From: Acutalibacteraceae bacterium
GTDB taxonomy: Bacteria > Bacillota > Clostridia > Oscillospirales > Acutalibacteraceae
Reading direction: 5' to 3'
Assembly (NCBI GenBank): GCA_045533625.1
Contig: JAZSID010000145.1
Span: forward strand, 1,166 to 65,165
Length of the DNA stretch: 64,000 nucleotides
Shown here: positions 31,112-48,359 of the stretch, one piece after another
Layout of the letters: every line of letters begins with the position of its first letter
How positions within the stretch are numbered: position 1 is the first letter of the stretch
Program-made: the position numbers and the translations under genes
Notes under the pieces: generated by a model
Told to the model about the DNA's origin: nothing
Seen by the model: the letters and a program-made list of their open reading frames with translations, nothing else
Database searches by the model: none

Positions 31112-31132
31112 TAGAAATCATTCATACTGTAG

Positions 31133-31161
31133 TTGACAAATGCATAGAATTATATTAGAAT
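31133..31161 (+). promoter_or_regulatory. near-consensus sigma-A promoter of the micro-ORF
   Basis: TTGACA (31133-31138), 17 nt, TAGAAT (31156-31161). Confidence 0.55.
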
Positions 31162-31184
31162 GTATTATGTTAGGAGGATTTAGT

Positions 31185-31214
31185 ATGGGTACAGGAGATA
31201 AACCGATTTTGTAA
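31185..31214 (+). CDS. 9-codon micro-ORF (MGTGDKPIL)
   Basis: AGGAGG (31172-31177) 7 nt before the ATG. The ORF is bracketed by its own promoter and by the terminator at 31224-31257. Too short for the ORF track; translation is unproven. Confidence 0.3.
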   Translation: MGTGDKPIL

Positions 31215-31223
31215 TATTAAAAA

Positions 31224-31257
31224 GAAGGCTTGCCGCTTTGGTGAGCCTTTTGTTTTT
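31224..31257 (+). terminator. intrinsic terminator after the micro-ORF
   Basis: Stem AAGGCTTGCC/GGTGAGCCTT (two GU pairs) with a 5-nt loop, followed by TTGTTTTT. Confidence 0.55.
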
Positions 31258-31301
31258 ATAAATTAAAAATAGACCTTAGAAGGGTTAGAAACCCCAACGG
31301 C

Positions 31302-31380
31302 ATAAATCTGAACCTTTCGTTCTTCAACGAAGCGTTCGGATTTATTTTTTCTTTGACTGAATAAAAAGTATACTCCCGTG
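31302..31380 (+). repeat. direct repeat copy 2
   Basis: ATAAATCTGAAC...CGAAGCGTTCGGATTTATTTTTTCTTTGACTGAATAAAAAGTATACTCCCGTG; see copy 1. Confidence 0.85.
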
Positions 31381-31396
31381 GAAAAATCCACGGGAG
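31373..31396 (-). terminator. intrinsic terminator of the surface-protein operon
   Basis: CTCCCGTGG/CCACGGGAG hairpin followed by TATACTTTTTATT on the minus strand, 47 nt after the lipoprotein stop. Confidence 0.55.
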
Positions 31397-31442
31397 CTTA
31401 TTATGTGAATTGTTTATTCAACCATCACTATACTATGTTTAT

Positions 31443-32234: not shown

Positions 32235-32366
32235 AGTTTTACCTCCGTATAGCAAATTGTACAAATACAGTTTAACATATAGCTATACCTATTTCAATAA
32301 TAGCCTTCATTTTTAACAGATTGTCTGAGTTAGTCATTTGACTATACTTCAAAATTTTCAGTACGG

Positions 32367-32966
32367 TTATTTTATGTATTCCATTTCAACAACTTTATAC
32401 ATCGATTTATCATCCGATGCATCAAGAAAAGCGTGGTGCAATTCGAAGTTATCCTCATTCCACACAAAGAAATAAGCACCTTTTGAAAATGGTCGAAAAC
32501 CGTCATCTGTTGAATAATTTCCAACCTCTTTCATAGTGCAGAAGGATGTCTTTTCGTAAACTGCACCGCCTCCGGCAAGAAGCCAAGACGACTCATTTAC
32601 TACTATACTGTGGTCATCGTAGTCAGATGTATATTCATAATACTTACTTCCAAATGACAACTCTGAAAAGCATATCAATCCACAATAAGCAAGAGCGAAG
32701 ACAGAAATAATAACCGTCAGAATTATACACAAAACCTTGTTGTTAATGTTGTTAAATATAAAAACAGCAAGAGCACAAGACAGCAGAACAACACAGAGTA
32801 TTTTTACGGAAGGTATAATTTCTTGTGTGCTGATAACAGAAAAATATATGTATACACCAAGCTTTTCTAATCCACTGATTAATAAGTTAGCAAATAACAG
32901 AACAACAGCAATTATAAAAGTTATTTTAGAAAATTTTGGAAATATAGATTTCTTCATTATTATCAC
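32367..32966 (-). CDS. membrane protein (4 TM helices plus soluble C-terminal domain)
   Basis: 199-aa ORF with four hydrophobic helices, then a ~90-aa soluble tail. No family recognised. Confidence 0.55.
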   Translation of the reverse strand: MIIMKKSIFPKFSKITFIIAVVLLFANLLISGLEKLGVYIYFSVISTQEIIPSVKILCVVLLSCALAVFIFNNINNKVLCIILTVIISVFALAYCGLICFSELSFGSKYYEYTSDYDDHSIVVNESSWLLAGGGAVYEKTSFCTMKEVGNYSTDDGFRPFSKGAYFFVWNEDNFELHHAFLDASDDKSMYKVVEMEYIK

Positions 32967-33022
32967 TCCTGTAAAAGTTGTGCTTACCCACTGGGTTAGG
33001 TCAGCAACTCATTTCTAACAAA

Positions 33023-34909: not shown

Positions 34910-34964
34910 AAGAGCACCTCCAACAAAGTAATCTTTAATAAATATAATATCAATTCAAATAATA

Positions 34965-37900
34965 TTATTCAACCGTATACTCAAGCGTACCTACTTGTCT
35001 CCATACATTATTGCGGTAGATGAGAATTCGGATTTCATTGAAACCTTCTTTATTCATCCAAGCCTTGCCTGTGAAGATTTTGTTTCCGTTTTCGTCTGTT
35101 GCTTTTGATGCAACGGTGACAGTTGTGTTGTCAGGCATTTTGAACATAACCTTTTCGGTCTTGTCATCAGCAACAACCGTTGCAGGTACGGGACCCAGCT
35201 TGCCCGATGTTGAGGAAAGCTCCATTGAAATAATGGGGTTGTACGGTTCAATTTTAAATTTGTATTTACCTATATCCCATTTACCGCTTACTTTGCCACG
35301 AACTTTAATTTCGTTACCTACGCTCATGTTGGAGTAAATCTCCCATACTTCATATGCAAGGTCACGGCTTAATTCATTAACAACTTCACCATTAGAATTG
35401 TAACTTGTAATGGATACATTCTTATGGTATCTGTCATAGGTTCTCGTACCACCGTCAGCTTCCATAAATTGAATCATAGATTTTCTTCCGTTGGCGGTTA
35501 CCGTAAAGTCTTTGTGGGTATCTTCTTGCTGAACATATTCAACTTTTGTGATATCAGATGTGATTGATCTGTTTTCACACGCACTTGTTCTGATAGTGAT
35601 TTCTTCAAACTCTCCATCCTTGCTTGTTACTTCACAATAGTAGTATGCAGCAGGATAATCGGCAGGATTAAAGTTTTTGCTTGTTGCACCTTCAATTTTT
35701 TTGCCGCCTGTATTGCTATCAACAGTATTAGAATACCATTGATATTTTCTGTTGAAACCTACAACATCCGCTTCAAGTTCACCCATATATGACTTGTAGT
35801 ATTCAGGTAAATCATTAATAACTGCGGTTTCAGGTGTTATTTCAATGAACTTAGCACCGTTTTCTTTCGCCCACTGTTCAATGTATGTTCCCGATGAACC
35901 GTAGAAGGTATATGTACTCATTTCATATTCTGAAAGTTCTTCCGGCATACTCTTTAATGTTGAAGGAATAACCAAACTTGACCAATTTCCCGGCAAATCT
36001 AATAATGCAGTTGCTTTTGAAAACTCTAAACGAACAATCAAATCGCCGTTGTCATTATAAAATCTAAAAGTTTTTTTTGGTATTACTACTAATTCAGTTA
36101 AATCAAATACAGTACGAACATTAATACCGTCCAAATATCCAGTTCTTCCATTTGGACCTTCTGAGAAATTGGCTAATTTTGGAATACATAACTTATGCGC
36201 TCCAAAGTTGTAAAAACTTGCAAATCCAATTGTCGTAACCTCAGGTAAAAAAAGTTCTGTGCAATATGCATATCTAAACGCTTCTTGTTCTATGATTTTC
36301 GCTTTAGGGAGAAATAATGTATCTATAGACGAAACATTGTAAAAAGCTCTGTATCCAATATGTTCAAGATTAGGAAGATTGTAAAACCGAATGCGTGATG
36401 AATCAAATGTGCTCCAGCCTACTTTTGTTACCGATTCTCCGTCAAGAAAAATCAACTCAGAGTTGTCCTTAAAAGACTCTCTATTATTTCCGTCAGAAGA
36501 TAATCCGCCTAAGAATGTGATTGTGTTAGGTAAAGTTAGACCCCAGACTTCAACACTGTTAAACGCACTATTTGATATGTCAGTTACTGTTATACCATTT
36601 ATCGTTTCAGGAATTATTATATCGTGCAATTTCCCGGTATATGAAGTTATTGCCCCTTCTTCGTCAATGGTAAAGTCAGTCTCATCCGCAAGGATAGATG
36701 AACGAAATAGGCCTGAATAAACTTTACTCGGTATGCCATCCTCATTATATGAGACCGCCTTAAAAATTTCTTCAGTTGCATAAATTTCAACAGCATCCGC
36801 AAGTAAAATTCCATTTTCAGGTGTAGGATATGTCAGGTCAAAAGTATAATAAATGTCTTCATTACCTGAAGAGGTGGCTTCAAGGACAATTTTTTCTTCA
36901 TATTTCCCGGGTTGTTTATTAACGCTGATATTTGGCCTTTCCAAACCAACCGCACCAACTGCATCAACAAGCCCTTCACCGTAAAGAAGAATTCCTACAT
37001 TACACTCATCGTATGGAGTAGCTGTTTCTCTTATGATATCAAAAGCATCTTCAACATTTAAATCAGGATTGAATGACAGCATCATTGCGCAAACAGCAGA
37101 AACAATCGGAGCAGAAAAGGATGTTCCACTAGCCTCTTCGTAGCCATACAAACCAATTGCCGGAACACTTTCACCCGGTGCACAAACAGCCACATGTTCA
37201 CCTCTTGAACTCCAATTGCAAGGGTATGAATATATGTTACTTGCACTGATAGTAAGAACGAAAGTTGAGGAAGCGGGAAGAGCATAATTAGGTTCGTAAC
37301 TTGCATTTGGGGAATTACCAGAACCTGCTATTACAAAAACATTTTGTTCATAGGCAGTTTTTATTGCATCTGCAAATAAGAGCGCTTCTGCATTCAAATT
37401 AGTCATATCAATAGGAAAAAGGAAACTACAGTTTATTATTTGTGCACCATCCAAAATTGCCTGTAACATGGCAACGGTAACTGTTGCCATAGAAAAATTG
37501 CCATCATCAGCAACTTTGTAGTTTCTAATTTTTACATTTTCAGGTGTTGCGTCAACAATTATGCTTGTAACCGATGTTTCGTGATTAAAGAAATCTTGCT
37601 CAGCTGCTTCAGGAGTGCCTGAACCATAGAAATAAGTCCTTTCAAGTCTTCCTTCAAAAAACTCTTGTTCTAAATCCACACCTGTTCCTATAAGAGCAAC
37701 TTTAACTTCGTTTAACTGAATATTGTTATTTTCAACGTAGTTTTTTATTGCATACAGACCTGTTGATTCTGCTGCCCATGAATTCAGAGTGTACTTGGTT
37801 GGATTTGAATCAATGTTTTGTTCTGCCGTCTTTTCAATCGGATTTTCGAGGGCAGGTACAGTTTTATCAACGCAAACAGATTCTATATCATCTGATTCAG

Positions 37901-38237
37901 TATATATATTAAGTGCTTTGATTGTATCACTTGTATTTGCAAACTGAATTATATGATAATCTTTATAGCCGCTTGCAATACCGACAGAGTTCAATTCTTC
38001 AGGTTTCTGCTTAGATTTTACAATTAATCGACAAGTAGACAATTCAGCCTCATCTGAATTGTCATCATAACCAAAAGTATTGAACTCAATTTCAGGCTGA
38101 TAGGAAATGAGCTCCATTGCATCGCTGACAAAACCTTGTATATCTTCTGTGTTGTTCTTAGCTGAACTGCTAAAATCAAATGCAAACATAGAAAAAATCA
38201 ATGTTGCAATTAATATAGTGCTTATTATTTTTTTCAT
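34965..38237 (-). CDS. secreted subtilisin-family (S8) peptidase with leucine-rich-repeat and Ig-like C-terminal modules
   Basis: 1090 aa. Signal peptide; Asp-His-Ser triad contexts VALIGTGVD, NHETSVTS and SGTSFSAPIVSAV. BspA-type LRRs (ITVTDISNSAFNS...); the C-terminal module duplicates that of the GLUG protein. Confidence 0.8.
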   Translation of the reverse strand: MKKIISTILIATLIFSMFAFDFSSSAKNNTEDIQGFVSDAMELISYQPEIEFNTFGYDDNSDEAELSTCRLIVKSKQKPEELNSVGIASGYKDYHIIQFANTSDTIKALNIYTESDDIESVCVDKTVPALENPIEKTAEQNIDSNPTKYTLNSWAAESTGLYAIKNYVENNNIQLNEVKVALIGTGVDLEQEFFEGRLERTYFYGSGTPEAAEQDFFNHETSVTSIIVDATPENVKIRNYKVADDGNFSMATVTVAMLQAILDGAQIINCSFLFPIDMTNLNAEALLFADAIKTAYEQNVFVIAGSGNSPNASYEPNYALPASSTFVLTISASNIYSYPCNWSSRGEHVAVCAPGESVPAIGLYGYEEASGTSFSAPIVSAVCAMMLSFNPDLNVEDAFDIIRETATPYDECNVGILLYGEGLVDAVGAVGLERPNISVNKQPGKYEEKIVLEATSSGNEDIYYTFDLTYPTPENGILLADAVEIYATEEIFKAVSYNEDGIPSKVYSGLFRSSILADETDFTIDEEGAITSYTGKLHDIIIPETINGITVTDISNSAFNSVEVWGLTLPNTITFLGGLSSDGNNRESFKDNSELIFLDGESVTKVGWSTFDSSRIRFYNLPNLEHIGYRAFYNVSSIDTLFLPKAKIIEQEAFRYAYCTELFLPEVTTIGFASFYNFGAHKLCIPKLANFSEGPNGRTGYLDGINVRTVFDLTELVVIPKKTFRFYNDNGDLIVRLEFSKATALLDLPGNWSSLVIPSTLKSMPEELSEYEMSTYTFYGSSGTYIEQWAKENGAKFIEITPETAVINDLPEYYKSYMGELEADVVGFNRKYQWYSNTVDSNTGGKKIEGATSKNFNPADYPAAYYYCEVTSKDGEFEEITIRTSACENRSITSDITKVEYVQQEDTHKDFTVTANGRKSMIQFMEADGGTRTYDRYHKNVSITSYNSNGEVVNELSRDLAYEVWEIYSNMSVGNEIKVRGKVSGKWDIGKYKFKIEPYNPIISMELSSTSGKLGPVPATVVADDKTEKVMFKMPDNTTVTVASKATDENGNKIFTGKAWMNKEGFNEIRILIYRNNVWRQVGTLEYTVE

Positions 38238-38329
38238 AATCTTTGCTCCTTTCTAAGTTTACTTCACGAAAATCTCAATATTATTTTCAATAAAATTGTA
38301 TAGTATAAAAAATCAAAAATAAAGTTCAG

Positions 38330-38370
38330 ATACAAAATTATAGAAAAAAGCGACAAAAATATTAAAAAAG
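38330..38370 (-). promoter_or_regulatory. box A: candidate LytTR-regulator binding site upstream of the S8 peptidase operon
   Basis: Minus strand reads ...ATTTTTGTCGCTTTTTTCTATAATTTTGTAT, then CTGAAC, 16 nt, TATACT. TTTTGTC and TTTTGTA are direct repeats exactly 21 bp apart. About 40 nt is conserved with box B (41794-41835). Confidence 0.4.
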
Positions 38371-38398
38371 ACAAGCAATCAACTAAGATTGCTTGTCT
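38369..38398 (-). terminator. intrinsic terminator of the regulator-kinase operon (stem includes the kinase stop codon)
   Basis: 12-bp stem AGACAAGCAATC/GATTGCTTGTCT followed by TTTTTTAATATTTTT on the minus strand. Confidence 0.55.
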
Positions 38399-39686
38399 TG
38401 ACAGGTATTAAAATCACTATTTTGAACTCGTTGTTTTCAAACATCCACTCAAATTCACCGTTGTAATTCTTCAATGCTTTGGCGACACTTCGCATTCCGT
38501 AACCGTGGGATTTCTTGTTTTCCTTGGTTGTAATCAATGTATCCTTATCTGCAATCAGCTCACTTGAACAACTGTTTTTCAGAATAATCTTGTGGAACTT
38601 GTTGTCACAATCCAGTGTAAGCTCGATGTACGGTTCTGTTTCCTTTTCGGCTCTCTCGATTGCATTCCGTAAAATGTTATCGAGAATTGCCGATAAATCA
38701 TAATCGCTGATAAACGAAAGGTTTTCGTTAGGCGCAACTGTGATAAAACGGATGTTTTTATCTTTGCACAGCAGAGCGTACTTATTGATTATGACATCAA
38801 GCACACGGTTCTTTGTTTTAGCTTTGATTGATACTTCATTCGATTTATCGTATATGTCCTGAATGTACTGCTTGACATTTTCTTCCGTAGTCAGATTGCT
38901 TATGTTGATAAGATTGTTACGGATGTCGTGAATAAAGATTCTTGTCTCCTCGTCTTTCTTTTCGAGAATATCAAGGTATTCAAAGTTGATTGCCTGCTTC
39001 TGCTCGACCATTTCCATATCGTGCAGTTTCTTCTGATTGTCAATCGTTCTTTCGTGAACAAAGAACACGACAACTATTGCAATAAACATTAATATCTCGC
39101 TTAAAATAAACAGGAGATTTGTTGTTGCATTTGATTCATAATAAATATTCTGATAGCGGAAAACAACCGTTATGAAGAAGGTCATTGCAGGCAGTATTGT
39201 AAGAACAATTGAAGACATTAGTCCTTCTTTGTTTTTGGCTTTCTTTGAAAACGACGATATTATCGCCAACAAAGCAAAGTAAATGAACTTTGAAGCAAAC
39301 GCTTCTTCGACGAGCAGTATTGTGTCATTTTCATATTGATTGACAGGCACATTCAAAAAAGACGATGTGAGGAAGAATACAAAAAATTCTGCAAGATTCA
39401 TTATCGCTACACAAAGCAAGGAATGAAATACCGATAGCTTCCAATCACATTCGTAAGCGGTATAAAAGAGAATGATATAAAGAATCACCGTTGCGGGAAT
39501 ATTGATATACGGCTTAGAAAAAAGAATCATCAACAACCACAATATTACATTGAGGACAAAACAAATTGCAAAAGATATTTTAGCATTTTTTCTGTAATTA
39601 AAAATCCGATTGCCGTACCAGAAAATAATATATGTTCCTAAAATGTAGACCAGGAACATAATTACGGTAAATATAGATTTGCTCAC
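38379..39686 (-). CDS. AgrC/ComD-like (HPK10) sensor histidine kinase, paralogue 1
   Basis: 435 aa. 6-7 TM helices, H-box IFIHDIRNNL, and a GHKL ATPase (LDNILRNAIERA, GYGMRSV). Confidence 0.8.
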   Translation of the reverse strand: MSKSIFTVIMFLVYILGTYIIFWYGNRIFNYRKNAKISFAICFVLNVILWLLMILFSKPYINIPATVILYIILFYTAYECDWKLSVFHSLLCVAIMNLAEFFVFFLTSSFLNVPVNQYENDTILLVEEAFASKFIYFALLAIISSFSKKAKNKEGLMSSIVLTILPAMTFFITVVFRYQNIYYESNATTNLLFILSEILMFIAIVVVFFVHERTIDNQKKLHDMEMVEQKQAINFEYLDILEKKDEETRIFIHDIRNNLINISNLTTEENVKQYIQDIYDKSNEVSIKAKTKNRVLDVIINKYALLCKDKNIRFITVAPNENLSFISDYDLSAILDNILRNAIERAEKETEPYIELTLDCDNKFHKIILKNSCSSELIADKDTLITTKENKKSHGYGMRSVAKALKNYNGEFEWMFENNEFKIVILIPVKTSNLS

Positions 39687-39713
39687 TTGCTTTCCTCCTT
39701 TTTAATCAGAAAT

Positions 39714-41012
39714 TTAACTGCTTTGTACAGGGATTAAGATAACGATTTTGAACTCGTTGTTTTCAAACATCCACTCGAATTCACCGCTGTAGTTCTTCAA
39801 TGCTTTGGCGACACTTCGCATTCCGTATCCGTGGAATTTCTTGTTTTCTTTGGTTGTAATTAAGGTATCATTATCCGCAATCGGTTCACTTGAACAACTG
39901 TTTTTCAGAATAATCTTGTGGAACTTGTTATCACAATCCAAAGTAAGCTCGATGTACGGTTCTGTTTCATTTTCGGCTCTCTCGATTGCATTTCTTAAAA
40001 TGTTATCAAGAATGGCTGATAAATCATAATCGCTGATAAACGATAGGTTTTCGTTAGGTGCAACTGTTGTGAAACGGATATTTTTATCTTTGCACAGCAG
40101 AGCATACTTATTGATTATGACATCAAGCACACGGTTCTTTGTCTTAGCCTTGATTGACACTTCGTTCGATTTATCGTATATGTCCTGAATGTACTGCTTG
40201 ACATTTTCTTCCGTAGTCAGATTGCTTATGTTGATAAGATTGTTACGGATGTCGTGAATAAAAATCCTTGTTTCTTCGTCTTTCTTTTCGAGAATATCAA
40301 GGTATTCAAGATTGATTGCCTGCTTCTGCTCGACCATTTCCATATCGTGCAGTTTCTTCTGATTTGTGATGTCTCTTTCGTGAACACTGAACACGACGAT
40401 ATTCGCAATAAACATCAGAACTTCAGCAACCACACACAATGAGGTTGACAAGATACTCGATTCAAAATACTGACTTTGCACTCTCAGAACAACGGTTATA
40501 AAAAAGGTCGTTGCCGGAAGTATCGTTAAATATATTGATGTTTTTGTACCGTCTTTTTTCATTCGCTTTTTGGCGAAAGAAGATATTATAGTCAAAAGAA
40601 TGAAATATAAAAACTTCGATGCAAAAGCTTCTTCAATCATAATAACAATATCATTTTTGAAATGAGTTACCTCTAAATCGAGAATATATGAAACAATAAA
40701 GATTATCATATATTCTGCAATCCACATCAAAGCTACAAGCAACAATGAATGAAAAAGTGCAAGTTTTTTGTCGCATCTAAAGGCAGAATAAAGAACCAGT
40801 CCGAACAGAATTATTGTTGCAACGATATTGACAACTTCGTTAAAGAAAAGATTCAGAAGCAGCCACAAAATAATATTAGCTGCCAGGCAGATTGTTACCG
40901 TTGTTTTGAAGTTCTTCCTGTAATCAAAAAGTCGGTATCCGTACCAGAACAGCAGATAGGTGTTTAACAGATAAATCAAGAAAGTTAAGGCATATACAGT
41001 AAGACCGGACAT
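39714..41012 (-). CDS. AgrC/ComD-like (HPK10) sensor histidine kinase, paralogue 2
   Basis: Start placed at MSGLTVYALTF (ATG 41010-41012), one nt after the regulator stop. Same architecture as paralogue 1; the ORF-track 5' extension would overlap the regulator. Confidence 0.8.
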   Translation of the reverse strand: MSGLTVYALTFLIYLLNTYLLFWYGYRLFDYRKNFKTTVTICLAANIILWLLLNLFFNEVVNIVATIILFGLVLYSAFRCDKKLALFHSLLLVALMWIAEYMIIFIVSYILDLEVTHFKNDIVIMIEEAFASKFLYFILLTIISSFAKKRMKKDGTKTSIYLTILPATTFFITVVLRVQSQYFESSILSTSLCVVAEVLMFIANIVVFSVHERDITNQKKLHDMEMVEQKQAINLEYLDILEKKDEETRIFIHDIRNNLINISNLTTEENVKQYIQDIYDKSNEVSIKAKTKNRVLDVIINKYALLCKDKNIRFTTVAPNENLSFISDYDLSAILDNILRNAIERAENETEPYIELTLDCDNKFHKIILKNSCSSEPIADNDTLITTKENKKFHGYGMRSVAKALKNYSGEFEWMFENNEFKIVILIPVQSS

Positions 41013-41013
41013 T

Positions 41014-41721
41014 TCACACCCCTCTTTCTGCAAATGAAAACATTTTCTTGCGGAATTCTGACTGTTTGCTCGGTGCAATTGAAATAATATACTTTTGGTC
41101 TTCGTGAGCCAATGTAAGCGATGAACGGTTAAAGCTCTCGACAAAATTGAAATTTATTATATAGCTTGCGTGCGGTGAGCAAAAATTCAATTCATCCAGC
41201 TTGCCTTTCCAATATGCAAGAGTTTCATTGGATATATACTGGCCTTTTGTTGTTACGATTTTAGATTTTCTTTTGTATGTTTCGCAGAAGATTATTGACT
41301 GAGTTGAAACCATTACGGAGTCATTGTTCGGGCAGATGATTTTGATATCCCTGCCTGAAATTGAAAGCAATGCCGCATCCAATGAACGGTACAATCGGGT
41401 AACGTCCAACGGCTTCTGCAGAAATCTGTAAGCACCGAGCTCGAAAGCATCGTCAAGATATTCAGAGTATGCTGTAATCATAAAGATTATAATATTGCTG
41501 AATTTTTGCTTGAGCTTTTTACCGACTTCAACACCGCTGACTGACGGCATTTCAACATCAAGAAAAGCCATGTCGAAGATGACATCGCTGCGAAGCAAAT
41601 CTTCACCGTTTTCAAAACTGAAAATCTCTGCGTCTATGGACTTTATTCCGAAATAATAGTTCAAAGCCTTTTCGACTTCTTCTGTTACTCTTGATTCATC
41701 ATCACAAATTGCAATTTTCAT
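41014..41721 (-). CDS. LytTR-family response regulator (AgrA-like)
   Basis: Start at MKIAICDDE (ATG 41719-41721, AGGAGTA RBS). Receiver domain (FLDVEMP) plus a C-terminal LytTR DNA-binding domain (CSPHASYIINFNFV). Confidence 0.88.
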   Translation of the reverse strand: MKIAICDDESRVTEEVEKALNYYFGIKSIDAEIFSFENGEDLLRSDVIFDMAFLDVEMPSVSGVEVGKKLKQKFSNIIIFMITAYSEYLDDAFELGAYRFLQKPLDVTRLYRSLDAALLSISGRDIKIICPNNDSVMVSTQSIIFCETYKRKSKIVTTKGQYISNETLAYWKGKLDELNFCSPHASYIINFNFVESFNRSSLTLAHEDQKYIISIAPSKQSEFRKKMFSFAERGV

Positions 41722-41761
41722 TATTCTTACTCCTTGCATATGAATACAATTATACATTTTT

Positions 41762-41790
41762 ATTATTACAAAAGGAGTATAACTTGTCAA
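41762..41790 (-). promoter_or_regulatory. sigma-A type promoter of the regulator-kinase operon
   Basis: Minus strand TTGACA (41785-41790), 17 nt, AATAAT (41762-41767). A TGTATAAT element lies further downstream. Confidence 0.55.
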
Positions 41791-41793
41791 TGG

Positions 41794-41835
41794 AAATGCA
41801 AAACTATCGAAAAAAGCGACAAAATTATTAATAAA
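41794..41835 (-). promoter_or_regulatory. box B: candidate LytTR-regulator binding site (autoregulation)
   Basis: Minus strand AATTTTGTCGCTTTTTTCGATAGTTTTGCAT, 5 nt upstream of the -35. TTTTGTC and TTTTGCA repeats are 21 bp apart. Conserved with box A. Confidence 0.4.
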
Positions 41836-41851
41836 ATGAACTTAACACTTC

Positions 41852-41897
41852 ATCCCTTGGCATCGCAATAAACGATACCGAGGGATTTTTATTTTTT
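41852..41897 (+). terminator. plus-strand intrinsic terminator
   Basis: Stem ATCCCTTGGCATCG/CGATACCGAGGGAT (one GU pair that is only valid on the + strand, one mismatch), followed by TTTTTATTTTTT. Confidence 0.55.
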
Positions 41898-41929
41898 ATT
41901 AAATTCCTTTTTGTCTAACATATTATAAC

Positions 41930-42415
41930 TGAAGACACAGGCTATAGGAATTTCTCACACAAGGACAGATTCTTGTTGCTTGTGGGTGGAGGAGCGATAC
42001 GGATATGCATTAAGTATTGTTCGTCCGCTGAGGTGCCGTGAGATGCGAATTGTTTTAAAATTCGCAGGCAGGCATCTCCTTCCAAACCAAAACGATATTT
42101 TAAAACCGTTTACAGTTTTGGTTTGAGGACAGAGTTGAAAAAAACTATTTTAAAATTTCAACTCTGTCCCGGAACGGTTGCTTTTTGAAAGAAAAGAACC
42201 GGTCCATGCTAACGGTTATTCAGTTATTTAACGGAATAACCAGTTAGCAGGACGAAGAAGTGATTTTTACTTCGGTGTAACGGGTTTGCATCGACCCTTA
42301 CGGATGAATTTTAAAATAAAATTCGTCGCTTCAATCGAAGCCCTTGAACAGTTTAACTCCGAAAGGTGGACGGTTTGAAAGTCCGTGCAGTGCGAAACTT
42401 TCACAATTTACACAA
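41930..42415 (+). ncRNA. candidate large structured RNA (unclassified); strand tentative
   Basis: No ORF of 60 aa or more in any frame across 41791-42384. Consecutive stem-loops at 42040-42078, 42083-42125, 42127-42169, 42171-42205, 42208-42248, 42253-42274, 42303-42327, 42328-42341 and 42365-42386. TTTTAAAA occurs at or near four apices. The GU pairs fit the + strand. See findings. Confidence 0.35.
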
Positions 42416-42422
42416 AAATAAA

Positions 42423-42452
42423 ACCATCCGAGTTTTTGAATTCTCGGATGGT
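42423..42452 (-). terminator. intrinsic terminator of the toxin/immunity-like operon (usable in both directions)
   Basis: Stem ACCATCCGAG/CTCGGATGGT followed by TTTATTTTTGTG on the minus strand, 8 nt after the last ORF. Confidence 0.65.
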
Positions 42453-42459
42453 AGTAGTT

Positions 42460-42723
42460 TCAGTTGTTTTTATCGTCAGCGACCGTGAAGTTAAACATTT
42501 CTTTGAAATCGTTATAGCATTCTTCACAAACCCAATATTTTTTGTCAAGGGTACAATAACCTTGCTGCAGGTCTTCTTCGTTCTCGCTGAATTTATCCCA
42601 ACAGAATGCACAGTGATCGTGATCCCATTTGTCTGACGGCTTAGTATATTCTGTCTTTTTAAGTTTGGCGTTCAACAAAAACTCTTTCTGATTCAAGAGT
42701 CTCCAATCGGTTCCCTCAATCAT
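42460..42723 (-). CDS. small zinc-ribbon protein (immunity-like)
   Basis: 87 aa. HDHCAFC...CEEC gives four Cys ligands; RBS AAAAGGTG. Confidence 0.55.
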   Translation of the reverse strand: MIEGTDWRLLNQKEFLLNAKLKKTEYTKPSDKWDHDHCAFCWDKFSENEEDLQQGYCTLDKKYWVCEECYNDFKEMFNFTVADDKNN

Positions 42724-42770
42724 GGTAAAGCACCTTTTTCCTTTTGTGTTTTAAATAATATTATTATATA

Positions 42771-43052
42771 TTAAAGATTTCTGTGCCATACAACAACTTG
42801 CGTTATAAAATCTCTTAACGGTTGACCTTGAATTGTATAATCCAAGAGTTCATCTATGGTCTCGAAGTGTTTGCCTTGCTCATCTTTATAGGCTTGACAT
42901 ATAAAGAAAGATTCTCTCCCTTCGCCTTCGTGGAACACACCATAATCCGTGCCATTCCAATTGAATTCAATTTCTCTTCCATTGGTTAAGCTGAATTTAA
43001 AGTCGTCAATAGACTCAAAAGGACTGAAATCTATGATGTTTTCGTTGTGCAT
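42771..43052 (-). CDS. small acidic protein (immunity-like)
   Basis: 93 aa; RBS GGGAGG; no family recognised. Confidence 0.55.
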   Translation of the reverse strand: MHNENIIDFSPFESIDDFKFSLTNGREIEFNWNGTDYGVFHEGEGRESFFICQAYKDEQGKHFETIDELLDYTIQGQPLRDFITQVVVWHRNL

Positions 43053-43102
43053 TAGAGTACCTCCCGGTTGTCCCGATAAAACTCCCTCTTGCAGAAAAAA
43101 TA

Positions 43103-43441
43103 CTAATTAACAACGAATTCTTCTTCGAATTTTTTATAATCAATATATTCTTCAGCATCTGAGAGATTAAATCCAAATTCATTTTTATAAAATTTCAAAA
43201 ACTGTTTTGCAGCTAAAAATGCCGTTTGTATATTTTCTGTTGATGTATTTTTATAACAATCATTCAAGCAATCGCAGAAATCTTCAAAAGCAGCAGGATC
43301 AGCAGAATCACTTCCGTCAAACAGTTCGAAATCCATGCTTCCTAACAAGATCCCAACGGAATCATTTTTTGTTTCATTGTAAAAACTTTCTAAAAGAGAA
43401 AACAAAGTTTTGTAAGATTGCTTTTGATATTGTCTATTCAT
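43103..43441 (-). CDS. small acidic protein, translationally coupled to the upstream toxin-like gene (immunity candidate)
   Basis: 112 aa. Its ATG overlaps the stop of the 333-aa ORF (ATGA) and AAAGGAG lies inside that ORF's end. Acidic motif DSADPAAFEDFCDCL is reminiscent of barstar-like inhibitors (weak). Confidence 0.55.
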   Translation of the reverse strand: MNRQYQKQSYKTLFSLLESFYNETKNDSVGILLGSMDFELFDGSDSADPAAFEDFCDCLNDCYKNTSTENIQTAFLAAKQFLKFYKNEFGFNLSDAEEYIDYKKFEEEFVVN

Positions 43442-44439
43442 ATAATAAATACTCCTTTCGGTTTACTGTAACCAGTTCCATTATTCCAATTAAGTGGAGG
43501 GTTGTTGATGCCACCATTTTGTATAGTGTCGCCTCTTACTTGAACCCAAACCTGTCCTTTTTCAGGAACTTCCTTTGAATACCAATCATTTCCATGACTA
43601 TCTGATCCCACATAATTTCGTCTGTCGTTTGCAACATCCTCCAATAGTGTGCGATTCTCTTTTGTATCCTTCATATGTCCCTTTTTATTTCTGAATATAT
43701 GTTTTGTCTGAGATTCATTTTGGGGTAAGGATACTTTTTTCTGTCCGCCTGCACTACCCATACCTTTTTCATTATACGATAAAACATAACCTGTTACTTT
43801 TTTGATATAACCTTTCTTTCGGTCGTCTTCCTTTGTATAGTTATTGGTTTGTGCATAATCAATCGTTATGATTTTCCCTTGCATTTCCACGAAGGGTTCA
43901 CCGTAGCAAATTACTGCTTGTGGTTTGACTTTTCGTATAAGTTCGTTATATCCCTGCAAAAACAAGGCTTTTTCTTTTCTTACACCTAAAGTTGAAACAG
44001 CAACCGTACTGCCTTTCTCTATTCCGTCAAAGCAAAACCAAAATGTGTTAGGTTCTCCCCATGCAACAGTCGGAATAACTTTAATCCCTTTAGATTGTAA
44101 ATATGCACCGCACCAACGACTTCTGAATGTATTGTATACCTTTAACGAAAGCGGCATTTCAGTGTAAATACTGTAATTGGGTGCAAGAACAGCTTTATAC
44201 TTTTTTAATCTTTCTATTCTTGGTTCAGGGTCATTCCACATAACTTCAAACTTGTAGTCATCTAAAAAGAAATGAACGATTTTATCAGTTTCATTTTCAC
44301 TGAGTTTATCATATCCGATTAGCTCTACATTTTCAAGTTTTATTTCTTCCTTTTCGATTTTTGGAATCTCAAAAACCCCATCACCTTTGAATTGATTTCT
44401 CAGAAACATAGGATTTGTTCTGAATTCTTCACTTTTCAT
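43438..44439 (-). CDS. DUF4417-like N-terminal domain fused to a toxin-like C-terminal domain
   Basis: 333 aa. Residues ~40-215 carry HFFLDDYKFEVMW...APNYSIY...N..RSRWCGAYLQSKGIKVIPTVAW, which I recognise as DUF4417. The C-terminal ~110 aa (KHIFRNKKGH...GNDWYSKEVPEKGQVWVQVRGDTIQNGGINNPP) resembles polymorphic-toxin nuclease tips; that family is not identified. Confidence 0.55.
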   Translation of the reverse strand: MKSEEFRTNPMFLRNQFKGDGVFEIPKIEKEEIKLENVELIGYDKLSENETDKIVHFFLDDYKFEVMWNDPEPRIERLKKYKAVLAPNYSIYTEMPLSLKVYNTFRSRWCGAYLQSKGIKVIPTVAWGEPNTFWFCFDGIEKGSTVAVSTLGVRKEKALFLQGYNELIRKVKPQAVICYGEPFVEMQGKIITIDYAQTNNYTKEDDRKKGYIKKVTGYVLSYNEKGMGSAGGQKKVSLPQNESQTKHIFRNKKGHMKDTKENRTLLEDVANDRRNYVGSDSHGNDWYSKEVPEKGQVWVQVRGDTIQNGGINNPPLNWNNGTGYSKPKGVFII

Positions 44440-44457
44440 TTATTTCCTCCTATATAT

Positions 44458-44495
44458 ATAAATGCAGAGAGAACAAATGTTCTCTCTGCATTTAT
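44458..44495. repeat. 38-bp perfect palindrome in a divergent promoter region
   Basis: ATAAATGCAGAGAGAACA-AA-TGTTCTCTCTGCATTTAT: 18-bp arms around a central AA. It lies between the 5' ends of the genes at 44439 (-) and 44634 (+). Confidence 0.8.
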
Positions 44496-44633
44496 ATTGT
44501 AGACAATATTTTAAAACTTGTCAATATATTTTTAGCTATATGTTGCTTTTGTAAACAGAAATTATTTTTCATCTAACATATTATTATCGAACGATTAAAT
44601 CCGTTACAACAAAAAACAAGGAGGTGAAAACCA

Positions 44634-45587
44634 ATGAAAAAGAAAAAATACCATAAGAAAAGTATTTCTCGCAAATTACGGGATGAATCTAACATATTCT
44701 TTTCGAGATATGAAAACAATGTAACCCGTTCGTCATTCATCAGAAACTATGCGAAGTTTATTGAGTATTGCAGAAAAGAACATAACTGCAAGACAAAAGA
44801 AGAGTGTAAAGAACAGATATTTAAATATATAGATTATCTGAAAGAAAAGGGATACACAGCAAGTACAATTCATACATACCTCGCACCCGTGGGATTGTAT
44901 CACGGAATATCACTCGCAGAAATGAATCTGCCGAAAAGACACAACGCAGATAACATCCGTTCAAGAAAGAAAAAGAAATACAGAGCTTCTGCTGATACTA
45001 AAAATCCGTTGTACTCCCGAACAGTTGAATTTCAAAAATGTGTAGGTATCAGAAGAAACGAATTGAAGAATCTCAGAAATAATGATTTCGGATATGACGA
45101 AAGCGGCTACCCTTGCGTCATCGTCAGCAAAGGTAAGGGCGGCAAAGAAACATACCAAAGGTTGCTTCCGAGTGACGAGGACTTTGTAAAATCTTTTTTT
45201 GATGGTTCGTCTAACATATTATTCTCAGCAGATGAGATGAATAATGACATCGACTACCATCACATCAGGGCCGAGCAAGCCGTCAGGTCGTATTACTATT
45301 ACACAGACAGATTAAAAAACGAACCTGAATACAGAGCACAGCTCGAACAAGAAATTGAAAAACGATGGAAGTTAAAAAACATCGACAAGAAAACAAAGAA
45401 ACCAAAACCGTTTGATAAGAAAGAAATCCGCGGACAATATCACATCCGAGGTAAGAATAAAGAGCTCGCCAAGAAGAAAGGTTTGCCGTTGGTCTATGAT
45501 AAATTGGCTTTGATGGCCGTTTCAATTTTTCATCTTTCGCATTGGCGCGTCGATGTGACTGTTTTAAATTATCTGTTAGCAATTTAA
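44634..45587 (+). CDS. tyrosine-recombinase-like protein (atypical)
   Basis: 317 aa. SAM-like N-domain (YIDYLKEKGYTASTIHTYL). Candidate catalytic residues are GIRRNEL (R), KGKGGK (K), YHHIRAE (HxxR) and LSHWRVDVTVLNYL (H, Y), but with a ~70-aa basic insertion between HxxR and the H/Y region. Confidence 0.5.
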   Translation: MKKKKYHKKSISRKLRDESNIFFSRYENNVTRSSFIRNYAKFIEYCRKEHNCKTKEECKEQIFKYIDYLKEKGYTASTIHTYLAPVGLYHGISLAEMNLPKRHNADNIRSRKKKKYRASADTKNPLYSRTVEFQKCVGIRRNELKNLRNNDFGYDESGYPCVIVSKGKGGKETYQRLLPSDEDFVKSFFDGSSNILFSADEMNNDIDYHHIRAEQAVRSYYYYTDRLKNEPEYRAQLEQEIEKRWKLKNIDKKTKKPKPFDKKEIRGQYHIRGKNKELAKKKGLPLVYDKLALMAVSIFHLSHWRVDVTVLNYLLAI

Positions 45588-45617
45588 AAATAAAAACCAA
45601 CGAAAGGAGGTGTTTGA

Positions 45618-45773
45618 ATGTCAAAGAACCCAACTAATAGAAAGGTTGGGGAGGTGTTGAATATTGAAATAAAGAAAGGAACGGAAAATATTCCGAAAGC
45701 AGTATATTCAGAATTAGCAAGATGCTTTTTCTCTGAAATAACAGAATTTTATAATAACAAAAAGAAGGTATGA
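45618..45773 (+). CDS. small ORF (51 aa) between the two recombinase genes
   Basis: AAGGAGG RBS 7 nt before the ATG. MSKNPTNRKVGEVLNIEIKKGTENIPKAVYSELARCFFSEITEFYNNKKKV. Could be a directionality factor (speculative). Confidence 0.35.
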   Translation: MSKNPTNRKVGEVLNIEIKKGTENIPKAVYSELARCFFSEITEFYNNKKKV

Positions 45774-45874
45774 TAATATGTTTAAATTTTTCAAAAAACC
45801 TCAAAAAGTAAAGCTTATGGCCTTTACAAAAGCGCTTTTGCGCGCTATATTAAAAACCCCAAGGAGGAATGAAA

Positions 45875-47344
45875 ATGAATGCTGTAATTTATGCCCGATA
45901 CTCAAGCAGTAATCAGACAGAAGCATCTATCGAAGGACAGATGCGAGAATGTAATGAATATGCCAAGAAGAACGGTATAAACATCGTTGGTACATACATA
46001 GACAGAGCCCGCTCTGCAACAACAGATAACAGACCCGACTTCAAAAAGATGATTAAGGACAGTTTAAACAAGAAATTCGATGCTGTTATCGTATGGAAAC
46101 TTGACCGTTTCGCCCGAAATCGTTATGATAGTGCGAAATACAAAGCCACACTTAAAAAGAATGGTGTTAAGGTTATTTCTATAACTGAGCATATCTCCGA
46201 TGACCCAAATGGAATAATTTTAGAATCAATGCTTGAAGGTATGGCTGAGTATTATTCTAAAGAGCTTTCGGTAAAAGTCATCCGCGGCAGAACAGAAAAT
46301 GCTTTGAAATGCAAATCAATCGGCGGCAATATTCCAATCGGATATGTGATTGATAAAAATCAGTTTTATCAGATAAACCCGTTGACTGCACCTGCTGTTC
46401 TTGAAGCGTTTCAGAGTTATGCTGAAGGAAAGACAATGAAAGAAATAGCAGAAGATATGTGTAGCAAGGGAATCAGAAACAACCGTGGAGGAAAGATTAC
46501 TTTCAATGTTCTGACACATATGTTTCATAATCGCAGATACATAGGCGAATACAAGTACCGCGATATTATTCATCCGAACGGAATTCCTGCAATTGTTCCG
46601 TTAGATTTGTTTGAAAAAGTTCAGGACAGAATGGCACAGACGAAAAAAGCACCAGCAAAACATAAAGCAGAAGATGACTACCTGCTTTCACCGAAGTTAT
46701 ATTGCGGAAAATGCAACAGGCTTATGGTAGGAGAAAGCGGAACAAGTAAAACTTCAAAAAAATATCATTATTACAAGTGTTCCGGTGTTAAAAAGTTCCA
46801 TGATTGTAACAAGAAGACAATCGGAAAGGATGCGCTTGAATCGATTGTTTTAAAACAAATCGAAAATGTGTATATGGATGACAATCTGATTGAAAAGATT
46901 GCCGATGAAGTTCTGACAGAACAAGCTAAAGAAAACACGACATTGCCTCTTCTCAAAAAGAAATATGCCGAAACCGTGAAAGGTATCAGCAATATGCTCG
47001 ATGCTATACAGAACGGAATACTGACAGAATCGACCAAAGAGAGGCTTGAATCATTAGAGCTGCAAAAAGCCGATTTATCACTGAAAATCACAAAAGAAGA
47101 ACTCGAAAGACCGCTGTTAACAAAAGAGCAGATTATCGAATGGCTAAAAGATTTACGAAAGTACGGAACAAAGCGTTTAGACCATAAACGAAGACTGATA
47201 AATACTTTTGTTAATTCAGTTTATCTGTATGACGATAGAATTATCATTAACTTCAACTACAAGGACGGTGCAAAAACCGTCCGAGTAGATGAAGTTAATA
47301 ATTTACTCCTGAGTTCGGATTCTAATGTATATGCTCTGCCATAA
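45875..47344 (+). CDS. large serine recombinase
   Basis: Start at MNAVIYARYSS (AGGAGG 7 nt upstream). Resolvase catalytic domain (YARYSSSNQ, VWKLDRFARN), recombinase domain, zinc ribbon (CGKCNR...YYKCSG) and a C-terminal coiled coil. Confidence 0.9.
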   Translation: MNAVIYARYSSSNQTEASIEGQMRECNEYAKKNGINIVGTYIDRARSATTDNRPDFKKMIKDSLNKKFDAVIVWKLDRFARNRYDSAKYKATLKKNGVKVISITEHISDDPNGIILESMLEGMAEYYSKELSVKVIRGRTENALKCKSIGGNIPIGYVIDKNQFYQINPLTAPAVLEAFQSYAEGKTMKEIAEDMCSKGIRNNRGGKITFNVLTHMFHNRRYIGEYKYRDIIHPNGIPAIVPLDLFEKVQDRMAQTKKAPAKHKAEDDYLLSPKLYCGKCNRLMVGESGTSKTSKKYHYYKCSGVKKFHDCNKKTIGKDALESIVLKQIENVYMDDNLIEKIADEVLTEQAKENTTLPLLKKKYAETVKGISNMLDAIQNGILTESTKERLESLELQKADLSLKITKEELERPLLTKEQIIEWLKDLRKYGTKRLDHKRRLINTFVNSVYLYDDRIIINFNYKDGAKTVRVDEVNNLLLSSDSNVYALP

Positions 47345-47380
47345 AAATCGACAGTCTTCGGTAGAAGGTTGTCGATTTTT
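47345..47380 (+). terminator. intrinsic terminator of the recombinase operon
   Basis: AAATCGACAGTCTTC-GGTA-GAAGGTTGTCGATTT followed by a T-run, immediately after the stop codon. Confidence 0.65.
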
Positions 47381-47526
47381 TACTTATTATCTCTTCACTA
47401 TTCACTCTTCACTAACTTTCGGGTCGATTTTCGAAAGTAATATGTTATAGTGAATATGCGTGGACGGAACACCCGCACCCGATTTTAATTTTAGATTATT
47501 TGCGATAAATCAGTTTATAAACGCTT

Positions 47527-47566
47527 AAAAACCCGAACTCTTTACCAATTCAAGAGTTCGGGTTTT
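47527..47566. terminator. bidirectional terminator
   Basis: AAAACCCGAACTCTT/AAGAGTTCGGGTTTT with A-run and T-run flanks, 5 nt from the stop of the dockerin gene. Confidence 0.6.
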
Positions 47567-47570
47567 TATA

Positions 47571-48359
47571 TTATACTTTAATTTCAATCATACCGTTAAG
47601 GCTGAATTTTGACCTGTCAACGCCTTTTTTGAAATCAAGGATTTTCTGCGTTGTTGTTTCACCGTCTGATGTTACGTTAAGCATAACCCATTTGCCGTCT
47701 TTGAAATAATACTTAGAAACTGTGCCGTCCTTAAGCTCATATGTTTCGCAAACAAGCTTTTCACCGTCAACGGTTACCTCTTCCGACTTAACATTTTTTG
47801 CATCTTCTGCACTGCCGATAGAAAGATCTACCTGCTCGTTGCTCTTCATATAAACATTAATACCGGGAGCAATAAAATCCGGAAAAATAAGATATGTCTT
47901 TGAATCAAGAACAAGGAGTCTTACCGTTTGACCCCGTGCTACAGTTTCAACGCAGGCATCCTCGCCTCGTATCATAGTTGTAACAACGTTGGTTCCCTCT
48001 TTATTTGTCACTTCGGTTTTAAGAGTAAACTCACCGCTTTTCAGTATCGGATCAACAACATCTTTTTTGTACGAGGTCGCAAGGTTATCGTCAACTTCAA
48101 GATCGCCGTCATAATTTCCGACAGAGATTTTCAAAGCAACAAGTGCATCACTTGAGTTGATGAAGCCGTCGTCGTTAATATCAGCATATTCTTCGTTGAT
48201 TTCCGTAACTTTACCAACGGCATACTGCAGAATCATAAGTGCATCTGAAGAATTGGTTGCACCGTCTGAATTGACATCACCGACAAGCCTTGCAGCTGCA
48301 GTTGATGCAAAACCGAAAGCGCAGATTATTGCAAGAAAAAACGAAATAAATCTTTTCAT
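47571..48359 (-). CDS. secreted protein with an N-terminal type-I dockerin
   Basis: Signal peptide, then two Ca-binding dockerin repeats: GDVNSDGATNSSDALMILQYAVG and DINDDGFINSSDALVALKISVG. The C-terminal ~170 aa is unknown. Confidence 0.75.
   Translation of the reverse strand: MKRFISFFLAIICAFGFASTAAARLVGDVNSDGATNSSDALMILQYAVGKVTEINEEYADINDDGFINSSDALVALKISVGNYDGDLEVDDNLATSYKKDVVDPILKSGEFTLKTEVTNKEGTNVVTTMIRGEDACVETVARGQTVRLLVLDSKTYLIFPDFIAPGINVYMKSNEQVDLSIGSAEDAKNVKSEEVTVDGEKLVCETYELKDGTVSKYYFKDGKWVMLNVTSDGETTTQKILDFKKGVDRSKFSLNGMIEIKV

Follow-up and report, generated by a model that had tools for sequence, protein, structure and literature searches.

A conserved structured element, probably an RNA, paired with a tyrosine-recombinase-family gene in integrative islands of gut Clostridia

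What could be the role of almost half a kilobase in which hairpin follows hairpin and no sizeable reading frame is found? The question is raised by positions ~41932-42408 (+ strand, ~480 nt) of a 64,000-nt stretch of DNA from an Acutalibacteraceae bacterium, hereafter the window. In a preliminary description, drawn up from the letters of the window alone, this locus was taken for a candidate large structured RNA on the + strand, in a setting typical of ornate RNAs such as ROOL or GOLLD. Comparison with homologous loci, which are cited below by their L numbers, bears out the structure and its strand and places it in different company. It is a conserved structured element, 330-600 nt long and built around a ~240-nt core, absent from the Rfam catalogue, and among the homologues examined it is obligately linked, in the same orientation, with one family of tyrosine-recombinase-family genes.

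The hairpin chain and its partner gene

Within 41930-42384 the largest overlapping open reading frames (ORFs) reach 45-48 aa, so that the stretch is indeed free of long ORFs as first described. The hairpins listed at that time are found in the sequence at the coordinates given: the stems at 42083-42125 and 42127-42169 are perfect over 11 and 14 bp, those at 42214-42241 (13 bp) and 42303-42327 (11 bp) match at 92% and 91%, and the remaining ones are present in the minimum-free-energy fold. Because the stems differ among themselves, the chain is not a repeat array. The + strand of 41930-42415 folds with -186.7 kcal/mol compared with -118 ± 6.3 kcal/mol for dinucleotide shuffles (z = -10.9), none of 100 shuffles being as good, while the - strand gives -152.5 kcal/mol (z = -8.9). 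The octamer TTTTAAAA, which had been noted at 42053, 42098, 42148 and 42309, is present at these four positions, which hold 4 of its 11 copies in the window (~8.5 expected); its local clustering in the element is real.

The protein encoded by the partner gene has at least 877 homologues, and the loci of homologues with 66, 59, 57, 56, 54, 50, 49, 45 and ~40% identity were fetched. An ORF-free region of 375-1745 nt was found upstream of the gene, on the same strand, in all the loci examined. Common to these leaders and the window by eye are the motif GCCCUUGAACAGUUUAAC, a hairpin with GGUUAU/AUAACC arms (H5) and a pseudoknot at the 3' end, the remaining stems being different in sequence. The chain is present at 93% identity in L009 and L007, and also in L088, which was found through its homologue of the 317-aa partner protein; the 3' core is conserved down to ~50% protein identity. 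As the distant leaders could not be aligned structurally by MAFFT alone, covariance models were built iteratively, R1 from three sequences and R2 from five sequences aligned with R1. In two independent loci, L108 and L107, R2 gave 186 and 157 bits, respectively, and both matches end ~20 nt before the start codon. The window scored 259 bits, the loci of the build set (L088, L090, L093, L089) 150-264 bits, L007 191 bits, L009 188 bits and L095 31 bits, with E-values of 5e-7 for L095 and 3e-5 for L100. In L094 and in three IMG/VR loci (L103-L105) the model recognises H5 only; a related but rearranged leader is visible by eye.

The covariation counts come from an alignment of seven distinct sequences to the model. 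Standard pairs make up 92.8% of 484 cells, as against 80.6% after shuffling and 32-47% when the partners were slid by 1-3 columns. Compensatory changes on both sides were found for 34 of 72 pairs; the shuffle mean was 15.6, none of 500 shuffles was as high, and the slid controls gave 3-5. Each of nine helices has at least one covarying pair. In the pseudoknot, helix S2 is 98% paired with four covarying pairs, and a G-C pair of S1 is replaced by U-A in L107. The alignment of five sequences agreed with these results. Among near-identical copies the substitutions fall mainly in loops and the indels are of 1-2 nt, not multiples of three, which excludes a conserved reading frame. The existence and the conservation of the structure are near certain in our estimate.

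The element lies directly 5' of the partner gene, on the same strand, in L009, L088, L089, L090-L092, L093, L095-L100, L107 and L108. In all cargo-free homologues the distance from the end of the core to the start codon is 15-40 nt, or ~130 nt where a second promoter copy intervenes. In L009 and L088 the element runs into the 317-aa gene, which is followed by a serine recombinase gene, and in L007 the element is present while the 317-aa gene is deleted. The window differs in that ~2.2 kb on the opposite strand (42409-~44545) separates the element from its partner gene (44634-45587, + strand). This stretch is absent in L009 and L088, and hence it is an insertion, referred to here as the cargo; its insertion point is directly after the last conserved helix. 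All 11 distinct contexts lie in mobile-element DNA, in line with the setting first proposed from the recombinases next door.

The 317-aa partner protein belongs, by catalytic residues and predicted fold, to the tyrosine recombinase superfamily, as a divergent family and a candidate MOB_M-like DNA-processing enzyme. Among 24 homologues R140, K168/K171, H209, R212, H303/W304 and Y313 are invariant or nearly so, and the catalytic Tyr, Y313, stands four residues from the C-terminus. The N-terminus is basic, and so is an insertion of ~90 aa between the HxxR and the His-Tyr motif. The AlphaFold model (pLDDT 89.7) matched Cre, IntI4, XerA, XerH and lambda Int in Foldseek with probability 1.00, and profile matches of the family to PDB entries were XerC-like, XerA and IntI4 at 26-30 bits. 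In the window protein itself a weak XerD-like similarity is seen at the N-terminus. Its homologues are named 'hypothetical protein' by NCBI and 'integrase' by JGI. NCBIfam has no TcpM-specific model, and both TcpM and the partner family match only its Xer and IntI models, weakly. A tblastn search of plasmids with the partner protein gave no match to TcpM of pCW3; the only matches, all weak, were to small plasmids of Caldicellulosiruptor and to a single one of S. suis; a single-protein viral scan gave no relative, and a metagenome scan two 5'-truncated loci.

Anatomy of the element

A terminator-like hairpin with a T-run stands upstream at 41852-41897 (+ strand); in it TTTTTATTTTTT comes after inverted repeat I6 (14 nt, 86% complementary). 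The preliminary description had the element framed by two terminators. The upstream one is there, though a simple terminator scan made no call for it. The downstream one (42423-42452) belongs to the cargo; homology with relatives that lack this insert ends at 42408. A hairpin followed by a T-run directly 5' of the promoter-like motif is also present in L088, L002 and L007, with stems that are partly or wholly different, and L009 has a G+C-rich 3' arm with a T-run at the equivalent place.

The promoter-like motif P1, TCTAACATATTAT, at 41914-41926 (+ strand) would place a putative start at ~41932. It is kept 5' of the element in L002, L007, L008, L009, L010 and L088, and relaxed forms (ACATAyT...TGA) are kept in L089, L090, L093, L095 and L103-L105. 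We take its CATA-type -10 to resemble promoters of mother-cell sporulation sigma factors. A second promoter-like copy of TCTAACATATTAT, P2, stands 5' of the partner gene at 44572-44584 (+ strand) and occurs in L009, L088 and L007 as well. A third + strand copy of the 13-mer, at 45210, lies within the coding sequence of the partner gene, and this internal copy is kept in L009.

The 5' segment (41932-42029, + strand) holds hairpins at 41936-41984 and 41985-42029 as well as a conserved motif at its start. It is nearly invariant in L002, L007, L008, L009 and L010, the substitutions among relatives being of the A-U / G·U type, and the motif ACGAyAGGAGUA recurs at the start of the distant leaders of L089, L090, L093, L095 and L107. 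Two rearrangements of this segment were met. In L007, from a metagenome-assembled genome (MAG) of sheep rectum, 272 nt resembling a miniature inverted-repeat transposable element (L007:5438-5709) are inserted at the equivalent of window 42012/42013; the insert ends in the inverted repeats GGGAAACAG...CTGTTTCCC, and a TA is duplicated. L007 is a decaying copy, since it has lost the partner gene and carries a ~410-nt deletion in its serine recombinase gene. In two metagenome contigs, L002 (3722-3745) and L003, the 5' segment is fused at the equivalent of window 42020 to part of a large serine recombinase, namely its C-terminal 239 aa, which are in frame from ...FCGKCNRLMVGESG. Apparently 4.7 kb were deleted, and with them the hairpin core, the cargo, the partner gene and the part of the recombinase gene that encodes the N-terminal half. 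The breakpoints of L002, L008 and L010 had suggested that 42020 is a recombination junction; this was set aside, as deletions and different cargo 3' of a shared promoter and 5' segment explain them better.

Then follow three lineage-specific hairpins with TTTTAAAA loops (42040-42078, 42083-42125 and 42127-42169; together 42040-42169, + strand). Their stems are kept and their loops vary among the window, L007, L009 and L088; in L107, L108, L089, L090 and L095 their positions are taken by unrelated hairpins. The suggestion that the TTTTAAAA loops might form kissing contacts thus loses its ground, as neither these loops nor the hairpins at 42040-42169 are kept in distant homologues.

The conserved 3' core of 241 nt (42168-42408, + strand) consists of seven hairpins, H4-H10, and the pseudoknot. 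H4 has a GAAA tetraloop in three lineages. The long hairpin H5 (42202-42253, + strand) keeps the sequence of its arms, GGUUAU/AUAACC; it has a bulged A, and its apex is variable, with covariation in the apical part. The pattern GCUAAyGGUUAUUc...gAAUAACCAGUUAGC is recognised as far as L094 and the IMG/VR loci L103-L105 (40% protein identity). In these last three, which are contigs of 14-15 kb with the partner gene and leader within 0.4-2.5 kb of a contig end, the leader carries two GGUUAU/AUAACC hairpins and not one; they may be small circular or excised elements.

Between H9 and H10 lies the single-stranded motif GCCCUUGAACAGUUUAAC (42340-42357, + strand), the counterparts of which are GCCCTTAAGTTGTTTAAC in L089, GCCCTCGATCAGCTTAAC in L090 and GCCCTTGATCGGTTTAAC in L093; it is also recognisable in L094, L095 and L101. 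The GAAA loop proposed at 42359-42366 (+ strand) is H10, CC-GAAA-GG in the window. It is GC-UUCG-GC in L093 and L108, and CCACGG-UG-CCGUGG, a perfect palindrome, in L001. H10 is a site of variable-length expansion: ~170 extra nt are present at its tip in L009 (1349-1517) and L007 (4919-5088), between the equivalents of window 42360 and 42365. The core ends in an H-type pseudoknot on the + strand, with helices S1 (42370-42373/42383-42386, ACGG/CCGU) and S2 (42376-42382/42397-42403, UGAAAGU/ACUUUCA). S2 reads GGAAGU/ACUUCC in L093, GAAAGC/GCUUUC in L090, GGAAAAC/GUUUUCC in L089 and GAAGAA/UUCUUC in L094.

Gene calls overlap the element in two places. The 343-aa form of P0074 starts in the pseudoknot region (L095:3001-3036), and so its N-terminus is probably wrongly extended; a 49-aa 'gene' (L107:631-780) lies wholly inside the conserved core. 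As spurious ORFs and wrong start codons overlap the element, corrections of annotation follow.

RNA, DNA site or leader

The strand is the same throughout: the + strand folds more stably than the - strand in 11 of 11 leaders. GNRA loops account for 7 of 28 tetraloops on the + strand and for 1 of 22 on the - strand, and G·U cells outnumber A·C cells by 12 to 5. In the IMG/VR clade GCAA, GGAA and GUAA loops sit on covarying stems at one position. An RNA of the + strand is favoured because of the G·U excess, the GNRA/UUCG loops, the pseudoknot and the conserved promoter-like motif. We consider RNA rather than DNA probable on these sequence grounds, and the element is presumably transcribed; folded single-stranded DNA of the + strand is possible, above all in the 5' half with its perfect inverted repeats.

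Known systems with a comparable layout are found among the MOB_M atypical relaxases, relatives of tyrosine recombinases, which include TcpM of pCW3, MobK of pIGRK and MpsA of SGI1 (PMC8152469, PMC6414798). MOB_M relaxases are the commonest chromosomal ones, 96% adjoin an integrase, and they are often annotated as integrase (bioRxiv 10.64898/2026.01.13.699239). The origin of transfer (oriT) lies 5' of the gene, being 125 bp in SGI1 and lying within a 456-bp region 5' of mobK in pIGRK (PMC6414798, PMC8152469). SGI1 moreover requires sgm-sRNA, which is encoded between oriT and mpsA as the 3' core of a 650-700-nt transcript ending just before mpsA and acts in trans, not through expression of MpsAB (PMC9299015, PMC6414798).

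The SGI1 system is compared here by its architecture as described and not by sequence, in which no relationship is detectable. Both systems have a tyrosine-recombinase-family protein of ~320 aa with a C-terminal catalytic Tyr (Y319 in MpsA, Y313/317 in the window protein) and an integrative island as setting. Both have a long non-coding region directly 5' of the gene and co-oriented with it, in which the conserved or functional core is the 3' ~250-280 nt and the 5' part is less conserved, and a gene with a weak promoter of its own. They differ in host, which is Enterobacteria for SGI1 and Clostridia here, and no MpsB-like second gene was recognised in the window system. For sgm-sRNA function has been shown and structure predicted, whereas the structure of the window element is supported by covariation. 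With pCW3 and pIGRK the likeness consists in relaxases related to tyrosine recombinases and in a hairpin-rich non-coding region of 390-456 bp directly 5' on the same strand; the 391 nt 5' of tcpM in pCW3 (NC_010937) are themselves a hairpin chain (z = -8.7), and DUF4417 and CAP-domain genes are carried by that plasmid as in these islands. The regions of pCW3 and pIGRK, however, are defined as DNA oriTs of 125-150 bp and not as pseudoknotted RNAs. Adjacency to an integrase is seen in the window system as in MOB_M, and both families are often annotated as integrase. From the hairpin-rich upstream regions, the RNA of SGI1 and the shared DUF4417 and CAP genes it follows that the architecture closely matches a MOB_M-type module.

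The reading we favour, to which we give about even credence, is by analogy a mobilisation or DNA-processing module like oriT/sgm-sRNA-MpsA (SGI1), oriT-TcpM (pCW3) and oriT1-MobK (pIGRK). Here 41932-42408 (+ strand) would be a structured non-coding RNA of ~480 nt, with a variable 5' hairpin domain and the 241-nt 3' core ending in the pseudoknot, and would form a fixed two-part module with the tyrosine-recombinase-family gene. The ancestral order would have been terminator-like insulator, promoter-like motif, structured RNA, in some cases a second promoter copy, recombinase-family gene and integrase. A toxin/immunity-like cargo of 2.2 kb would then have been inserted exactly past the last helix, leaving the RNA intact but parted from its gene. 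The protein would process the DNA of the element at a site in or next to the structured region, and the RNA core would be a trans-acting cofactor or regulator working with it, H5 with its conserved arms and bulged A being the likely protein-binding hairpin. Action in trans has indirect support in that the putative RNA is intact, at 93% identity to its relatives, despite the 2.2 kb of cargo before the gene. By analogy with the systems above we infer action as an RNA, binding of the protein and a role in transfer.

Several results weigh against this reading. The RNA model found no match in the oriT region of pCW3. The family profile scored TcpM at 23.3 bits (E = 3.5e-4, Z = 177,635), with the Xer and IntI structures at 26-30 bits, and hhalign against TcpM gave 63% probability over the catalytic region only; relaxase identity is unproven, because TcpM scores no closer than XerC-like, XerA and IntI4. 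No conjugation genes were seen in the loci. P1 is not a canonical sigma-70 match, and a promoter scan called no canonical sigma-70 promoter for the element. The 34 covarying pairs come from alignments fitted to the model and from seven sequences only, of which L108 is close to L093. In most distant homologues, moreover, the element reaches up to the ribosome-binding site, an arrangement that a simple leader acting in cis would also explain. A DNA site would likewise account for the perfect 11-14-bp inverted repeats in the 5' half and for the conserved sequence of the H5 arms.

These last two points each open a rival explanation. In one, the element acts as DNA, as an oriT or a folded single-stranded site for the adjacent tyrosine-recombinase-type enzyme, and any transcript is incidental. 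The oriT regions of the three characterised MOB_M systems lie in the 125-456 bp directly 5' of the relaxase gene and hold several inverted repeats (PMC6414798, PMC8152469), and the stretch upstream of tcpM folds as a hairpin chain; the perfect repeats of the window lie at 42083-42169, the arms of H5 look like a protein-binding site, and the - strand also folds beyond chance. Yet at least seven covarying hairpins with a covarying pseudoknot exceed the needs of known oriTs, GNRA/UUCG tetraloops recur at fixed positions, the G·U excess and the 11 leaders favour the + strand, and a promoter-like motif is conserved at the 5' edge. We regard a site of this type as rather unlikely for the element as a whole; it may hold for the 5' half only, because oriT and an essential RNA coexist in SGI1. 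Similarly unlikely, in our estimate, is a purely cis-acting 5' leader of the recombinase-family messenger RNA, for instance with autogenous binding of the protein to H5 and no function in trans. Such a leader would be expected where the orientation always matches that of the gene and the pseudoknot ends 15-40 nt before the ribosome-binding site or start with no promoter copy between, as in L089, L090, L093, L094, L107 and L108. It sits uneasily with the second promoter-like copy between element and gene in the lineage of the window, L009 and L088, and with the cargo and terminator on the opposite strand in the window, past which the element is intact and its stems preserved. The ribosome-binding site, furthermore, lies outside all conserved helices, and few translational operators would be expected to measure 330-600 nt and include a pseudoknot.

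That the element is a guide RNA like bridge RNA or seekRNA, directing the tyrosine-recombinase-family protein to DNA targets through variable loops, has only a slim chance. The order promoter, non-coding RNA, recombinase is that of IS110 elements (PMC11208158), and as with the bridge RNA of IS110 and the seekRNA of IS1111 a structured RNA would lie directly 5' of, and co-oriented with, the gene for a mobile element's recombinase. Stems and core are kept while the loops and all of the 5' domain change quickly, and the basic N-terminus and ~90-aa insertion of the protein could be read in the same way. However, IS110/IS1111 enzymes are DEDD/RuvC-like and use an RNA of ~180 nt with target and donor loops, in contrast to a tyrosine recombinase relative and 330-600 nt here. 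The longest matches to the putative, unmapped island ends are 7-9 nt, no better than shuffles, which is a weak test, and an ordinary serine or tyrosine integrase can account for integration in 7 of 11 contexts; the literature yielded no RNA-guided or RNA-associated tyrosine recombinase. Still less credible is an effector of the neighbouring LytTR two-component system, similar to RNAIII, fasX or VR-RNA. The element is divergent from the LytTR operon, CAAAAyTAT direct repeats 21 nt apart lie at 41799-41828, and size and hairpin count presumably resemble those of RNAIII. The repeats, though, face the regulator's own minus-strand promoter, with the terminator-like hairpin between them and the element. 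The operon is not adjacent in L089, L090, L093, L095, L107 and L108, where the recombinase-family gene is always present, and the contigs L002, L003, L008, L010 and L014 carry an identical regulator but no hairpin chain. We reject this reading, as the element travels with the recombinase-family gene and not with the regulator; the adjacent regulator promoter of the preliminary description is unrelated, since distant homologues lack the operon. A known large ornate RNA class, namely ROOL, GOLLD, OLE, HEARO or raiA, carries next to no probability. The likeness is in length (~0.5 kb, several hundred nt being usual for these classes), in the many hairpins and in the mobile element of a ruminant-gut Clostridia genome. 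Nevertheless, Rfam 15 at gathering thresholds gave only transfer RNA (tRNA) for the window and for seven homologous loci, and a permissive scan of 41700-42500 (E <= 10) gave only microRNA-type hairpin matches of at most 23 bits, with gathering thresholds of 45-105 bits. The ROOL/GOLLD suggestion is dropped for want of any Rfam match and because the element is not free-standing, being the fixed 5' partner of one protein family. Searches outside Rfam were likewise negative: BLASTN of 41800-42470 matched nothing in phage and plasmid collections, and a pattern search of viral-contig DNA gave 0 matches for a 20-mer of the 5' segment and 0 for a degenerate core motif.

A more far-reaching reading, which we put forward as tentative, is that the element is the RNA subunit of a hitherto unrecognised RNA-protein machine, so that a widespread clade of tyrosine-recombinase-type enzymes in mobile elements of Clostridia would need a dedicated pseudoknotted RNA of ~250 nt. 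If this is true, the RNA would take part in DNA nicking, recombination or transfer as cofactor, as scaffold or by setting specificity, and a dependence on RNA glimpsed so far once, in SGI1, would be a general and structurally defined feature of an enzyme class. The mechanism of MOB_M is obscure, and SGI1 is the sole case that hints at an essential RNA; the covariation-supported architecture, together with a protein family of at least 877 members in gut and rumen Clostridia, offers a testable model for RNA in DNA processing. The databases would also gain a new RNA family, and a class of integrative islands could be recognised by it. Should the element prove to be only an oriT or a leader, it would still define the cis-region of a mobilisation or recombination module that is large and has so far gone unannotated.

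Cargo, island and neighbouring genes

The cargo on the - strand comprises the terminator at 42423-42452, three small ORFs (42460-42723, 42771-43052 and 43103-43441) and a gene for a DUF4417 protein (43438-44439), as judged with Pfam and PHROGs. The 333-aa protein has an N-terminal DUF4417 domain (PHROG 'nuclease') and a C-terminal extension of ~130 aa without family match; the small ORFs have no Pfam match, and one is Cys-rich. In its layout the cargo is reminiscent of a toxin accompanied by immunity genes. When neighbouring proteins were looked up by exact sequence, an 87-aa protein led to one 615-bp contig and the DUF4417 protein to no record.

Element and partner gene stand at the integrase-proximal end of a low-G+C island of ~18 kb (~30000-48000), directly 3' of a tRNA gene (29843-29913). 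The likely island integrase is a large serine recombinase (45869-47344, + strand; Pfam Resolvase, Recombinase and Zn_ribbon_recom). The order partner gene, large serine recombinase is also found in L088 and L095-L099, and in L094 with a gene between. Of the 11 contexts, 7 have an integrase gene inside the flanks that were fetched. The integrase is a serine recombinase in the window and in L009, L088, L094 and L095, a tyrosine integrase with Xis, followed by a tRNA, in L093, and a divergent tyrosine integrase in L090. Its distance is 0.1-2 kb in the window, L088, L090, L093, L094 and L095, and no integrase was seen inside the fetched flanks of L089, L101, L107 and L108. Since a neighbouring integrase can account for integration, the partner protein is probably not the island integrase where one is present. 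A 12-mer, CCGAACTCTTTA, occurs 3' of the tRNA (29929-29940) and ~190 nt past the stop codon of the serine recombinase (47533-47544). Both copies lie inside terminator-like hairpins and bracket the low-G+C island; they may be attachment-site cores, or chance (BLAST E = 0.7).

To the left of the element a LytTR response regulator (41014-41721, - strand) is followed by two AgrC-like kinases (39714-41144 and 38379-39686, - strand) with nearly identical C-terminal halves and different membrane sensor domains. Close relatives of the regulator come from Acutalibacteraceae/Clostridia MAGs of ruminant hindgut. A 33-nt segment (41799-41831) with the two CAAAAyTAT repeats, 21 nt apart as in the spacing of a LytTR box, lies 5' of the regulator's own promoter (TTGACA-17-TGnAATAAT, 41790-41762, - strand). 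The segment is found again at 38333-38365, past the second kinase and 5' of a subtilase/leucine-rich-repeat (LRR) gene, and it flanks an LRR_5 gene cassette in L002 (5893-5932 and 3930-3968) and in L003. From its sequence the arrangement looks like a shuffled set of LytTR-regulated surface-protein cassettes. Two secreted paralogues (33023-34909 and 34965-38237), one of them of 1090 aa with LRR-like repeats, share C-terminal stretches of ~200 aa that are almost identical.

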